Source of the DNA: an uncultured virus (IMG/VR IMGVR_UViG_3300028805_000102)
Taxonomy: Duplodnaviria; Heunggongvirae; Uroviricota; Caudoviricetes
Reading direction: 5' to 3' (one strand)
Virus record (IMG/VR): IMGVR_UViG_3300028805_000102
Length of the DNA: 20,000 nucleotides
This document shows positions 11,750 to 16,400 of the stretch, piece after piece (position 1 is the first letter of the stretch; the number at the start of each line of letters is the position of its first letter). A program made the translations under genes and the position numbers. The notes below the pieces were generated by a model that saw only the letters and a program-made list of their open reading frames with translations, was not told where the DNA came from and made no database searches.

Positions 11750-12244
11750 ATGGAAAATTTTAAGACATTCAAAGAATTCAACTTTGACAAAAATGGATAC
11801 ACGGACCTTACAGGTGACAAACAAGAAATAAAGGATTTTCTTATAAAAAACAAAGACTCTCTTCCTGTAAAGGCTGAAATAATGGCAAATGCAACAGAAT
11901 CAGATACAAAGCTTGCAATGCTCTATAACATCTACGGTCTTGTAGACGACTTCGAAATTATAGGTGACGACTTGTATATCCTGTTCTATCCTGTATATTT
12001 CACATACTACAAATATCATTTTACAAGACCTCTGATACTGAAACATTCCGAGACCGGGAAAAATCTACGTTTCGACAAAATGTTTTCATTCATAGTACCA
12101 TACCTGTCAGACCTGCTTACTGGTGCTTTGATGAACGAAGGCTTTTCAAAAGACAAGGCCATAGAGTGGATGAATAAATCTACCAACAAGGAATACTTTA
12201 AAAAAATGACTGGTAGACAAACAGTGAATCCATATGAAAAGTAA
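11750..12244 (+). CDS. Hypothetical protein with a KTFKEF N-terminus
   Basis: 164 aa. The N-terminus MENFKTFKEF resembles the T4 internal-protein capsid-targeting sequence (MKTFKEF/MKTYQEF). Confidence 0.75.
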   Translation: MENFKTFKEFNFDKNGYTDLTGDKQEIKDFLIKNKDSLPVKAEIMANATESDTKLAMLYNIYGLVDDFEIIGDDLYILFYPVYFTYYKYHFTRPLILKHSETGKNLRFDKMFSFIVPYLSDLLTGALMNEGFSKDKAIEWMNKSTNKEYFKKMTGRQTVNPYEK

Positions 12245-12286
12245 AAAGAAAAATTTGAAAAGTTTCGTAATATAGTTATTAAATGT

Positions 12287-12310
12287 TGTTTATTTAATTA
12301 AACTATAAAG
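12287..12310 (+). promoter_or_regulatory. Candidate promoter TGTTTA-N12-TATAAG upstream of the large RNA
   Basis: The same TGTTTA-N12-TAyAA arrangement occurs at 16451-16474 and 18471-18494, all in intergenic positions. Confidence 0.4.
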
Positions 12311-12389
12311 TCAATAACTTGAAAAGATTTGACAGGAGTTCGAGTTCAAACTATACTCCAATAAGTACATTGAAATAATGATAATTTTA

Positions 12390-13045
12390 TACAGCTTGAC
12401 GGTCTGAAACCTAAGTTTAAATAATTTACTGGAAGAACGCCTGCTTTGTAAAGATGTAGATTGCAATAATTCAATCGTCTGATAAGTAGGATATTACAGC
12501 ATCAAGTTGTATTTTAGAAATAATTTTGTGTGCATAGGCGAGAAATCCCTATGTAGAATCTCCTAAATTCGGTGGAAATCCTTATCCTGATATAGAATCC
12601 TAAAACGGTTATGGATATTTTCTATAAAGAGTAGTCGGGAAGAAAGCACTAACTAATAATGTGTAAGGACTATACCGAGCGAAAATGAGATAAATACGAT
12701 GCCAATAGGAGCATAGAAGTAGTATTACTGTTACGCAATATACAGAATCTTATAATCGTGTAGACTGAAAGGGAGATACATAAAGTTGGAATTGAGATTT
12801 AAGCACCTTTGATGGAGAGGGACGTGAAATGATACTCAGCCTATATGGAATAAGTCACGTTGAAATAGCTAAAATATATCTCTACTTGCAAGAATTTCAA
12901 TATGGTAATATCAGTCAAAACCACAACAAACAATAAGGTTGAAAATCCGAGATTGTGTAAATCGAAAATGTAATTACTTGTCATTAAGTCTTGTAATGAA
13001 TTGTTTGTCTATGGTAACATAGTGTGGTAGGGTTTCACAGACCCA
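12390..13045 (+). ncRNA. Large structured RNA with a group I intron-type core (P2-P9), no evident exons and an end-closing helix
   Basis: Pairings read by eye: P2 tgcatagg 12531-38/cctatgta 12548-55; P3 atctcct 12558-64/gggagat 12771-77; P4 ttcggt 12568-73/accgag 12674-79; P5 tcctta 12579-84/taagga 12664-69; P6 gcga 12679-82/tcgt 12756-59; P6a atgagat/atcttat; P7 gactga 12763-68/tcagtc 12911-16; P8 extension ttggaatt 12786-93/aatttcaa 12893-900; P9 accaca 12920-25/tgtggt 13023-28 and acaaacaat 12926-34/attgtttgt 13000-08; closing helix ggtctgaaacc 12401-11/ggtttcacagacc 13031-43. No ORF of 60 aa or more in the gap. Confidence 0.75.
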
Positions 13046-13113
13046 TTTTAAAACAGTACATTAAAATTTTATGATTTATAAATTCTGAGATGTAGAAGTT
13101 AGAATAAACAGAC

Positions 13114-14010
13114 ATGAAAGTAAAAACAAGAAAATTTCCAGAATGTAATTACAATGCGACATGGATTGACGGTAAAACATTTCGAATGGGAGATGGTTTT
13201 GCTAAAGAATTACCAGCAGACAAATCTGAATTTTATGACATTGCCCTTGGCACAATGTGTAACCTAAATTGTCCGTTTTGTTATGCAGAAGCATCAAACA
13301 ACGGTAAATTCTATGATGATATTTGTCAAAAGGCCGAATTGTTTTTTGGTAACATGTCAGAAAACGACAAGCCGTTTCAGGTGGCAATAGGAAGTTTGGG
13401 TGAACCGACAATACATCCGGATTTTATCAATTTTCTAAAAACAATTGCAAAATTTGATATTGTTCCTAATTACACAACAAACGGAATAACATTAACAACA
13501 GAAAACGATTTCCGTGACGAATTGTTAAGTGTTACAGATAAATTATGTGGCGGTGTTGCCATAAGTACAAACGAATGGAATACAAAGATTCAAGAAACGT
13601 GGAGAAAGGCAGTAGAAAACTTATCATACTTTACAAAGACAAAGATAAATTTACACTATGTTGTTTCAGATGAGAACTCTGTTGTTAGGTTTAAAGAAAT
13701 TTATGACGAATATAAAGATAGAATCTTTTATTTTGTATTACTGCCAATGATGGATTCCGGACGTTGTACACAACGGTATAGCGAGAGCGCTTTTAAAAAA
13801 TTGGAAACTATGTGGAATGATTTCGATGTTTCAAAAATATCATTTGGTGCTCATTTTTATCCATTATTGAAAGAAAGCAAAATAATTAATTGTTCATTGT
13901 ACGAACCTGAATCATTTAGTAAAAATTTGATTCTTGACAATCCAATAACGATTACAAGAAGTAGTTTTGATTTAACAGTTTTAAAAACAATAGAATATGA
14001 AAAGAAATAA
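13114..14010 (+). CDS. Radical SAM superfamily protein
   Basis: CxxxCxxC motif CNLNCPFCY, GGEP-like GSLGEPTIHP and NYTTNG. 298 aa with no C-terminal SPASM cysteine cluster. Confidence 0.92.
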   Translation: MKVKTRKFPECNYNATWIDGKTFRMGDGFAKELPADKSEFYDIALGTMCNLNCPFCYAEASNNGKFYDDICQKAELFFGNMSENDKPFQVAIGSLGEPTIHPDFINFLKTIAKFDIVPNYTTNGITLTTENDFRDELLSVTDKLCGGVAISTNEWNTKIQETWRKAVENLSYFTKTKINLHYVVSDENSVVRFKEIYDEYKDRIFYFVLLPMMDSGRCTQRYSESAFKKLETMWNDFDVSKISFGAHFYPLLKESKIINCSLYEPESFSKNLILDNPITITRSSFDLTVLKTIEYEKK

Positions 14011-14590
14011 AATTTTATTCACGTTTAAAATTCAGAGTTTTTCTGATGTTATTACAAACAGTTCAAGCGAATTGTTTGTATTTGACGACAAAGGAGATGT
14101 AGAAAAAGTAAAAGAAATCCTTGATGGTCTTTATCCTGATTGGAGAAGCGAATATGAAGAGCCTGTCTTATTGAAAGATGCGGATGATGCTTCTGTTGAG
14201 TTATATGCTGAATATCTATTGCCAAGGGGCTGGGATTACGACTATCGTGGAGAAACAACAGAAGAATGCAGAAATCTTCTTCGTCAAGATATTAAACATT
14301 TCTTTAATGAAGACGCAAAAAGATTTTATCCAAATATTGATACTTGGGACCCGAAATATAATTGGAGTAATGATAAAAAGTTTAAAAATAAATTATACGA
14401 AGATTTAACAAGAGAAGAAAGGAGTGAAATATGGAGTAAACACGAACTCGAGTGTGATTATGATGAAGTTGTAAAATACTTAAAAGATAATAGACAAAAT
14501 GAAGTATTATTATTTTCATTAGGTGATAATCCTGATTGGGATATGCAGAAAAAACTTCAAACAGTTGCTAACCGCTATCATTTAGGTTAA
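13997..14590 (+). CDS. Hypothetical protein with IQSFSDVITNSSSELF N-terminal motif, copy 1
   Basis: 197 aa, acidic, overlaps the radical SAM gene by 14 nt. Confidence 0.85.
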   Translation: MKRNKILFTFKIQSFSDVITNSSSELFVFDDKGDVEKVKEILDGLYPDWRSEYEEPVLLKDADDASVELYAEYLLPRGWDYDYRGETTEECRNLLRQDIKHFFNEDAKRFYPNIDTWDPKYNWSNDKKFKNKLYEDLTREERSEIWSKHELECDYDEVVKYLKDNRQNEVLLFSLGDNPDWDMQKKLQTVANRYHLG

Positions 14591-14606
14591 AATTTTAATA
14601 TTAAAA

Positions 14607-14981
14607 ATGAAAAAGAGATTTATTATACAAATTCAGAGTTTTTCTGATGTTATTACAAACAGTTCAAGTGAGTTGTTTGCTGTTGGAGATGTAAACAAAA
14701 CAGCAAAAGAAATAAAAAAATTGCTTATACAAAAGTTTAAAGAATCAGGCGATACGTGTAGTGGCATGGAAGGATACATAGAAGTTACTCCATATGATGC
14801 ACCTGATGATATTAATGATTTTGTAATTACAAGTGATAATCTTAAATATGCACGTTATCTTAAAACTTGGAAGAAACTAAATATACCACAAAAAGGTTTT
14901 TTCATTGATATAGATAAGGGTTTATATAATACGATAGAGTTTATCAGAAATGAATTAAAAGGATATTTATTAGATTATTAA
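14607..14981 (+). CDS. Hypothetical protein with IQSFSDVITNSSSELF N-terminal motif, copy 2
   Basis: 124 aa. Identical 16-aa motif, and 40 identical nucleotides (14028-14067 vs 14629-14668), shared with the previous gene. Confidence 0.85.
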   Translation: MKKRFIIQIQSFSDVITNSSSELFAVGDVNKTAKEIKKLLIQKFKESGDTCSGMEGYIEVTPYDAPDDINDFVITSDNLKYARYLKTWKKLNIPQKGFFIDIDKGLYNTIEFIRNELKGYLLDY

Positions 14982-15067: not shown

Positions 15068-16400
15068 AATAGTTCCAAAATCCATAGAAATATGGAAATT
15101 GTTTATAATTTAACAATTACCGGGTGAACTACAACGCCCTCTATCCCATCAAAAAAGACTTTTGGGAATGCTTTTCTCATGATGTTATAGCTTCCGTTCA
15201 CATCGGCATTTATTTTGTTTCCGTTTTCAGAAACAAACAAGCCTCGATGAACACGTTTTCCTTTATAAACATCATGCTTTCCAATTTCTTCCAAATCAAG
15301 GAAACTACATTTGGATGTGTAGCTTTCCTCGTTTGTAATTACTTTTATCCCCACCTTTTCGCATTTGTATGAAACCATCTCGACAAATCTACTGTGAGGT
15401 ATTTGTATGAAGTTCTGGTTGTTTCTTGAACCGGCGTTGCAGTCTTGCTTCCATCCGTCGTTCTTTCCTATAACCAGAACAGATATGCTCTTGTCTTTTA
15501 AATCATTTACTATTCTCTTGCTTGCACGATGCAAGTAGTTGTCAACCTTATTATTCCTTTTGTTTGTAAGTCTTCTTGTCCTGTGTGAATGCTTTTTCTT
15601 ATTGACTTTTTCTAATTTTGACTTATATTTTGCAAGTTCCTTGTTATAGAACTGGTTAATCGATTTCAACGGCTTTCCGTTTATAATTGTCGGCTGTTCT
15701 CCTGATGAATATGTTACTGTAGCAAGATTACTTACTCCTAAGTCTATTGCAGCTATATTCTTGTTGAATTTTACTTTTTCTACATCTTCAATGGTATATA
15801 TTACTTCAATAACATACTGCTCCGTCTTAGGGACAATCCTTATGCAATTTATTGATTTAAAGTTATTTATCTTCGTATAAAATTCTATATCTACTTTTGA
15901 CAGTTTAATTTTATGTGACTTTTCAAAAACCTTCTTTGAAATCGTCTGGTTGTTGAATGTTGCAACATACCTCCCATCTTCCTTATGTAAGAATTTCGGG
16001 AACTTGACGTTTTTGTTATCAATATTTTTTGAACGAAGCATTCCGAAAAAAGAATTGCAAGTTGCATGAACTGATCTTAAAGTCGCTTGCGCAACTTTTT
16101 GAGGAAGCTGTTTGAAGCATTCTTCATTTTTCATGAAGAAATATGAATCATTCAAAATATCATATGTTTTACTTTCCTCGTATTCCTTACGTATCAGATA
16201 CAATGTCCTGTTATATATGTTCTTTGAAGAAAAGCATAGTAAATCACATTCCTTATATAAGGGATGACTTCTTTTAATAATATGTCTTTCCACCAATTGC
16301 ATTTCTGTATAATGATACGTTTACTATTTTATTTATATATTTTCAAAAATACTTGATTTTTAATTTGTTAAATAAATAGAATTATTTCTATAAATTTTCT
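15068..16400 (-). mobile_element. Non-autonomous IS200/IS605-family (IS1341-like) element carrying tnpB only; ends approximate
   Basis: tnpB lies on the opposite strand to its neighbours, with no tnpA in the window. A subterminal hairpin tccata-gaaa-tatgga (15081-15096) lies just past the stop codon. Exact ends cannot be determined without an empty allele. Confidence 0.55.
15103..16302 (-). CDS. tnpB: TnpB RNA-guided endonuclease (IS200/IS605 OrfB), rearranged RuvC-II type
   Basis: N-terminal MQLVERHII...SKNIYN, RuvC-I AAIDLGVSNLA, LVIGKNDGWKQ in place of the usual VIEDL, NEESYTSKCS, and RuvC-III INADVNGSYNI. 399 aa. Confidence 0.93.
   Translation of the reverse strand: MQLVERHIIKRSHPLYKECDLLCFSSKNIYNRTLYLIRKEYEESKTYDILNDSYFFMKNEECFKQLPQKVAQATLRSVHATCNSFFGMLRSKNIDNKNVKFPKFLHKEDGRYVATFNNQTISKKVFEKSHKIKLSKVDIEFYTKINNFKSINCIRIVPKTEQYVIEVIYTIEDVEKVKFNKNIAAIDLGVSNLATVTYSSGEQPTIINGKPLKSINQFYNKELAKYKSKLEKVNKKKHSHRTRRLTNKRNNKVDNYLHRASKRIVNDLKDKSISVLVIGKNDGWKQDCNAGSRNNQNFIQIPHSRFVEMVSYKCEKVGIKVITNEESYTSKCSFLDLEEIGKHDVYKGKRVHRGLFVSENGNKINADVNGSYNIMRKAFPKVFFDGIEGVVVHPVIVKL

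Follow-up and report, generated by a model that had tools for sequence, protein, structure and literature searches.

Within the 20,000 nucleotides analysed here (the window), from an uncultured phage of the Caudoviricetes, lies an RNA element with a group I-like core whose P7 helix appears to lack the usual entry for guanosine. This raises the question of whether the element still splices, is the remains of an intron, or has been put to another use.

Genomic context and anatomy of the element

The virus record is 124 kb long and carries a family B polymerase, a DNA methylase and a radical SAM gene, with 19 tRNA calls and a tmRNA about 30 kb from the RNA element. The latter lies in an 869-nt gap between an upstream ORF ending at 12244 and a downstream ORF starting at 13114. 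There is no ORF of at least 50 aa within 12500-13050, and hence no homing endonuclease or transposase inside the element. ARAGORN found no tRNA in the window, and we found no second copy of the element in its genome. An independently assembled contig from run X1, probably the source sample, spans 12661-13110 with 0 letter differences and 0 gaps. Since it agrees letter for letter across the P6/P7 junction, the short junction described below is real DNA and not an assembly slip. The contigs compared with the window came from four of 24 runs; for habitat, the 22 of 24 runs with small word shares were left out.

The surroundings hold some features of their own. The motif TGTTGTTTATT, at 12284-12294, is repeated upstream of genes elsewhere in the genome and is possibly a phage promoter. 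The radical SAM gene (PF04055) is followed by two ORFs with a common motif, IQSFSDVITNSSSELF (together 13114-14981), and a TnpB-like gene (PF01385, PF07282) lies on the minus strand at 15103-16302, about 2 kb from the RNA element. In G000 C1, an unannotated stretch behind a boxA-like motif (32090-32260) has a tRNA-Ala on one side and the tmRNA on the other, and tRNA-like sequences 3' of the tmRNA (32620-33100) were either uncalled by ARAGORN or called without identity.

The element occupies approximately 12525-13044 and, by helix pairing and alignment with tRNA introns, is a member of a group I intron family of phage tRNA genes. P2, P3, P4, P5, P6, P8 and P9 are all paired in the window, and the P, Q, R and S elements of a group I core are present. 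The positions on which the original prediction was built were exact (TCGT 12756-59, GTA 12760-62, GACTG 12763-67, CAGTC 12912-16, A12917 and CTAT 12670-73). The features are, from 5' to 3':

12329..12357 (+): sigma-70-like promoter, TTGACA-17-TATACT, identified purely as a consensus match; candidate transcript start at about 12364
12365..12375 (+): boxA-like antitermination motif GTACATTGAAA, four copies in the genome
12389..12512 (+): additional 5' domain with an 11-bp closing helix (12389-99 / 12502-12), found only in this element
12510..12521 (+): worn boxA-like copy, by pairwise alignment; its counterpart lies directly 5' of the core in the orthologue L184
12525..12533 (+): former internal guide sequence TTTGTGTGC, of the type seen in the family's tRNA(CAU) introns
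12532..12554 (+): P2 hairpin, 7 of 7 pairs
12558..12583 (+): P3 5' strand (12558-64), P4 5' strand (12569-73), J4/5, P5 5' strand (12579-83)
12584..12646 (+): variable P5 tip, agreeing with L184 in just 26 of 75 columns
12647..12682 (+): P5 extension, P5 3' strand, J5/4 CTAT (12670-73), P4 3' strand (12674-78), P6 5' strand (12679-82)
12691..12748 (+): variable P6 tip, by tip comparison
12756..12768 (+): P6 3' strand TCGT, J6/7 GTA, P7 5' strand GACTG(A), lacking positions 262 and 263
12771..12794 (+): P3 3' strand GGGAGAT (12771-77), then P8 5' strand
12795..12883 (+): variable P8 tip, common to the canonical tRNA intron L115 (79% over 91 nt)
12884..12917 (+): P8 3' strand, J8/7 AATAT (12907-11), P7 3' strand CAGTC (12912-16), A12917 at position 312
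12920..13028 (+): P9 domain, ACCACA (12920-25) / TGTGGT (13023-28), with a variable tip related to the one in L162 between them
13031 (+): retained G where the family has its omega-G
13030..13049 (+): terminator-like 3' hairpin followed by a T run, with 4 T here and 8 T in L184

The promoter-like site (12329-57) matches the consensus at 11 of 12 positions and was the best among 10 sites found, against 6.0 expected in shuffles. The motif that we take to be a boxA occurs twice at the tRNA cluster and twice flanking the element. Folding of the 124-nt 5' domain gave a z-score of -1.96, with 6 of 200 shuffles equally stable, and the domain has no counterpart among the fetched family loci or in Rfam. 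The splice-site G is G12528, and the 5' tRNA half is absent upstream of the guide sequence. The 3' tRNA half is absent too, and CACAGA (13036-41) in the 3' hairpin can pair with the guide sequence (12525-30). The terminator scan made no call at this hairpin (13030-13049). At the base of P8 the window copy carries a private mismatch and one extra A; its P8 tip was also found on an RNA contig whose junction has the long form. Minimum free energy folding of the whole region was uninformative (z -1.08). In Rfam, the window had 0 matches at E up to 1, ROOL and GOLLD models included; the Rfam group I model also failed to match five canonical members among the nine family loci scanned, so this silence carries no meaning.

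The guanosine-binding site

In the part of the structural work available to us, P7 consists of six pairs with a bulged A263, and pair 262-312 precedes G264-C311 (PMC10020454). The same part describes the guanosine site as four stacked triples (A263-C262-G312, G-G264-C311, A261-A265-U310 and A306-C266-G309) and assigns guanosine or metal-ion contacts to C262, A304 and A306 (PMC10020454). When the window is mapped on the Tetrahymena numbering given there, G12763-C12916 corresponds to G264-C311 and A12762 to A261.

The P6/P7 segment had been described as two nucleotides shorter than usual, and the comparison with the family agrees: canonical tRNA introns read GTA-GA-GACTG and the window lacks the GA. 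Positions 262 and 263 are missing, and the partner of 262 (position 312) is A12917 instead of C. This A and a J8/7 of 5 nt (AATAT), against 7 nt in the family, are two lesions of the same pocket beyond the one previously described. As a consequence of the shortened J8/7, U12911 stands at the A306 position, where its pairing with A12768 could make P7 one pair longer. Judged from the sequence and from the triples given in the available part of PMC10020454, two of the four layers of the guanosine site are gone, and G264-C311 and the omega-G are kept. An alternative register with T12761-A12917 paired and A12762 bulged is 2.9 kcal/mol worse, as calculated for the isolated helix. In 7 of 10 short-junction members position 312 is A or G, either of which can pair with U; A also occurs there in 5 of 59 long-junction ones. 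The J5/4 CTAT, previously listed as another sign of change, loses this meaning: it is also found in 14 of the 39 members whose flanks join into a tRNA.

From the published guanosine-site structures we infer that catalysis is probably lost. In the accessible part of a mutational study in cells, a six-base change over 261-266 abolished activity and G264A alone was weakly active, and these changes differ from the lesion of the window (PMC4094466). We consider it very likely that the element does not splice.

The short junction recurs in a family of phage tRNA introns

A first pattern scan gave only three chance matches (L001-L003). Scanning with the two P4 strands returned 30 loci, and scans with the P5-P4 motif, which are independent of the junction, returned 25 loci and then 119 stretches, 80 of them with full flanks. 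Together, the scans gave 111 distinct sequences, i.e., five chance matches and 106 family members; L134 carries the DNA of the window and is not counted separately. The junction could be read in 94 members and was long in 83 and short in 11. The short junction thus recurs, and the case that had been held to speak against the original prediction, in which all homologs carry the GA, did not occur. A scan for the short form that ignored P4-P5 returned 15 loci, of which five are family members, all with a whole scaffold and two of them new (L184 and L187). A scan of a genome collection gave seven matches, two of them family members (L200 and L203). BLAST of annotated phages gave seven short matches, all outside the core, and the neighbouring proteins used as bait (the 164-aa ORF and PolB) gave no related viral loci.

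Most long members are inserted in tRNA anticodon loops, with GTA-GA-GACTG at the junction and CAGTC-C opposite it. The P7 subtypes among them show matching changes across the helix. In RNA run X11, contigs join 13031 (the omega-G position) to 12530 (the P1 loop), as circles of other, active members would, and L112 consists of tandem identical intron copies of the same form as these joints. Together, these observations indicate that the family splices. The scaffold columns of the window are 95-97% identical to those of canonical introns, and equally close to derived ones. In run X24 the summed RNA depth over the conserved core was very high. No RNA contig covered the window-specific parts, own ends included, in the two RNA runs (X11 and X24); 12250-12510 has no RNA cover in either, which speaks neither way. 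Among the matches listed for X24, a second contig covers 12761-12782 without the AG insertion; it may be a short-junction RNA and was left uncounted.

Some members differ in other ways. L083 (match at 368, minus strand) has a canonical core and appears to lie inside a protein-coding gene, not a tRNA. In L019, L076, L105, L107, L116 and L157, which are otherwise canonical, the P7 3' strand is split by an insertion at one site. The insertion of L019 ends in G right before the rest of P7 and contains a P9-like stem, and L067 has one extra G at that P7 site, resembling a scar. This insertion is possibly a nested element, in which case the outer intron could splice only after the insertion had been removed.

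The lesion goes with the loss of tRNA exons

In 52 members all anchors were found; their flanks were joined, and ARAGORN was used to search for a tRNA across the joint. The outcome was read as join or no join only; the printed tRNA identities are unreliable. No tRNA was obtained for seven of eight short members (the window, L015a, L050, L061, L086, L101 and L110) against 6 of 44 long ones. The remaining short member, L072, gives a tRNA on joining, as do 38 of the 44 long members. For the window, none of the joins tried gave a tRNA. L163 and L171 are short, have no 5' tRNA half and are cut off at their 3' ends; L161 is short and cut off at both ends.

The catalytic core was altered in 10 of 13 members without a join and in 3 of 31 with one (Fisher p 2.5e-5, the rows not being independent); this comparison covers 44 of the 52 members, the eight others having been dropped, some for insertions in J7/3 or P7. 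One of the three altered cores with a tRNA join, that of L070, is a plausible working variant. The derived J8/7 (AATRT) was found in 12 of 69 members, nine of them short and exon-less and three with a long junction (L013, L015b and L047). L015 encodes two exon-less copies in one tRNA array (865-1370 and 1505-2095). They have different tips, and one has a short and the other a long junction, with the derived J8/7 in both. A dead core within tRNA halves was found in L047 and L072 and, judging by the 5' half, also in L160 and L165.

Candidate start signals and a putative guide-tail helix

A boxA-like or promoter-like motif lies just 5' of the core in 12 of 17 exon-less copies, which were picked by hand, against 1 of 39 tRNA-joinable members, in which a shorter stretch was read. 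For the promoter-like motif we used the Bacteroidota consensus. In the window, a 124-nt domain separates the boxA-like motif from the core, which is why this copy does not count among the 12.

The bases directly 5' of P2 can pair with a strand 6-8 nt behind P9 in a helix of 5-6 bp. This guide-tail helix was found, in one register, in eight of nine short exon-less copies against 1 of 37 tRNA-joinable introns; in the latter count five elements were missed by the anchor, two of which are counted among the former. It was found post hoc and occurs in three independent versions (TTTGTG/CACARA, CATTG/CAATG and TATGAG/CTCATA). Two of these put a C opposite the splice-site G, and the Tetrahymena intron is inactivated when the pair at its splice site is C-G (Williams 2020, bioRxiv 10.1101/2020.01.27.920355). 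Measured by free energy, the end-to-end pairing of the window was no better than that of shuffles (p 0.34). We rejected a general end-to-end pairing in all exon-less copies, as one of eight short copies had it and, in a second count, 3 of 13 exon-less ones, and the window did not.

Exon-less copies of other subtypes, with P7 or J8/7 lesions of their own, also lie behind boxA-like motifs (L200, L078, L082, L149 and L013), and in L200 a perfect 12-bp stem joins the ends. These copies suggest repeated domestication or decay.

Conservation of the scaffold and exchange of the tips

Scaffold pairs were intact in 420 of 440 cases in nine short exon-less copies, an undercount in which the P3 anchor of the window was misplaced, and in 1373 of 1442 cases in 29 tRNA introns. 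L184 is an orthologue of the window element, with the same start, the same lesion and the same 3' hairpin, followed by eight T. The two are identical in 234 of 255 core columns and in 128 of 335 tip columns. The flanking genes of L184 are unrelated to those of the window, and the PolB proteins of the two phages are 28% identical. P4 is kept in L184 through a matching change. A scan for the 3' end of the window and L184 returned L184 only.

With the catalytic columns left out, the derived J8/7 clusters in a tree of 69 scaffolds, requiring three changes against a shuffled mean of 11.3. The single-clade test neither rejected nor established one origin: p-AU was 0.097 for the members with the derived J8/7 and 0.27 for the nine rows that are both short and exon-less. 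No sister of the window is supported in this tree. No canonical copy was found in the five records with derived copies, which are 25-82% complete.

We compared the P6, P8 and P9 tips of the 11 short copies, leaving out those of P5, and found a clear match between L015a and L163 and a second match of 26 nt. Because tips are also exchanged with active introns, an intact scaffold could be maintained by recombination, with no need of selection. Intact scaffolds are also favoured by the main scans, in which the P5-P4 motif had to match exactly. The window copy shows wear (the private P8 mismatch, the worn inner boxA and the short T run). Strict T-arms were found in the tips of two of nine short copies and 3 of 39 tRNA-joinable ones. 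The window tips hold no strict T-arm and one T-loop-like hairpin against 0.4 expected; lacking a T-arm, they do not support tRNA mimicry or a tRNA decoy for this copy. The idea that splicing chemistry might be lost while the fold is kept has gained ground, since the short junction recurs, goes with exon loss and accompanies a paired scaffold; on these comparisons the loss is probable.

Comparison with known systems

The element resembles bacterial tRNA anticodon-loop group I introns of subgroup IC3 (Azoarcus tRNA-Ile2 type; Williams 2020), having their P2-P9 core with P, Q, R and S; the subgroup label follows the statement of Williams 2020 on tRNA introns. It also resembles the phage tRNA introns of its own family, with 95% scaffold identity, a guide of the tRNA(CAU) type and a G at omega. 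Unlike IC3 tRNA introns, it has no exons, lacks 262 and 263, has a changed 312 and a J8/7 two bases short, and has candidate start and end signals of its own and long variable tips. In Williams 2020 (bioRxiv 10.1101/2020.01.27.920355), introns are located by way of their exons, and copies without exons are not reported. As far as the accessible part of PMC10020454 goes, the element shares with the Tetrahymena and Azoarcus cores the G264-C311 pair, the A261 position and the P7 pairs 264-268 / 307-311, but it has a U at the A306 position and no A263-C262-G312 layer.

ROOL and GOLLD, in the available parts of their descriptions (PMC12286853, PMC5737381), are likewise large structured phage RNAs of unknown function and similar length, often near tRNA genes. 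The element differs from them in having a group I core and a traceable intron ancestor; it has no Rfam match, and nothing in the comparison with these parts favours the formation of a cage. Introns in tRNA genes of large gut phages are known from the Lak megaphages, where they are called enigmatic; the part of that report available to us does not assign them to group I (PMC6784885). BLAST against Lak records gave no match to the core, only one to a 46-nt trailer at E 0.2. In the open literature we found no description of exon-less group I-derived phage RNAs; supplements outside this scope, e.g., the alignments of Williams 2020 or the motif lists of PMC5737381, may bear on the matter.

Alternative explanations

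That the short junction is an assembly error, or a deletion unique to this genome, is very improbable. Losing two bases in a dinucleotide repeat is a typical slip, and a long junction is seen on the RNA contig that has the window's P8 tip, but the independent assembly is identical across the site and the short junction is present in 12 other distinct elements. The X1 contig and these elements rule out the error or private deletion. A ribozyme that is altered and still active, in which the shifted P7 register (T12761-A12917, with A12762 bulged) rebuilds the guanosine site and the RNA cuts or processes tRNAs or neighbouring transcripts in trans or in cis, seems unlikely to us. The window does retain G264-C311, the A261 position and the omega-G position, 312 can pair with U in the 7 of 10 short members with A or G, and the guide is still of the CAU anticodon loop type in a genome with uninterrupted tRNA(CAU) genes. 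Yet the shifted register would either leave a J6/7 of one base or open P6, J8/7 is shortened too, and the A at 312 is also found in five long members. Furthermore, G264-C311 is broken in L015a and L086, the omega-G is lost in L015a, L061, L086 and L110, J4/5 is shortened in L184 and L061, and the guide is predicted to be blocked by the tail.

A neutral relic is a serious possibility, although we do not think it probable. The tRNA gene would have died or lost its halves, the catalytic strands would have slipped at GA repeats, and the scaffold would be young or refreshed by recombination. The many active introns of co-infecting phages could serve as partners, and tips are indeed common to canonical introns; recombination with active introns should, however, mend the catalytic strands too, and these stay broken. 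Short junctions arose independently in L072, which has tRNA halves, and in L161, and this recurrence of a deletion within a GAGA repeat makes an easy slip. Yet the same compound lesion is found in 11 exon-less copies that share few P6, P8 and P9 tips. Decay would also account for the varied lesions, with some truncation, of the dead copies (L071, L078, L081, L082, L109, L124, L149, L152, L160 and L165), for the intermediates with tRNA halves and a dead core (L047 and L072, and L160 and L165 by the 5' half), for the private wear of the window copy and for the lack of RNA contigs on its specific parts in the two RNA runs. The search was biased towards intact P4-P5, but the scan that ignored P4-P5 found whole scaffolds in all five family loci among its 15. 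Start and end signals of their own and three versions of the guide-tail helix are unexpected of debris.

A proposed stand-alone RNA derived from a tRNA intron

We favour, with somewhat better than even confidence, a phage tRNA group I intron that has turned into a non-splicing, stand-alone RNA under selection for its fold. We do not class the element as a self-splicing intron, because of its guanosine site, its J8/7 and its exon joins, even though it has a group I scaffold and descends from tRNA introns; that it was repurposed is a reading of the sequence comparisons. In its sequence, the element combines absent tRNA exons, a complete P2-P9 scaffold and a dismantled guanosine pocket with its own candidate start and end signals. 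As a stand-alone RNA, it would give a stable transcript of about 520-690 nt, folded like a group I core and unable to add G or to splice. The guide sequence would be blocked by the 3' tail of the RNA itself, with a C opposite the splice-site G. More speculatively, selection might remove catalysis, since an exon-less ribozyme could attack cellular RNA, and keep the fold as a stable carrier of exchangeable P5, P6, P8 and P9 tips; in the window, this carrier might additionally display the 5' domain. The element might then be a dedicated gene for what was formerly an excised intron. That host RNA-binding proteins or nucleases are trapped by the tips, as by a sponge or decoy, is a guess in which we have little confidence.

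Group I introns are regarded as parasites made harmless by splicing. We tentatively propose, being almost as inclined to accept this as to doubt it, that gut and rumen phages have more than once domesticated tRNA group I introns into stand-alone non-coding RNAs, in which the active site is dismantled, the guide locked and the fold used as a chassis for four exchangeable tips. If this is true, the excised intron itself serves the phage, and such genes make that product without splicing. A recurring exon-less and catalytically dead form with its own signals would be a ribozyme fold kept for a non-catalytic use. Ancestors, intermediates (a dead core in tRNA halves; a full R with a dead S strand) and end states are all available, and the family provides a natural series of guanosine-site variants for structural work. 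The function of excised phage tRNA introns and the origin of large phage RNAs of unknown function would thereby become testable.
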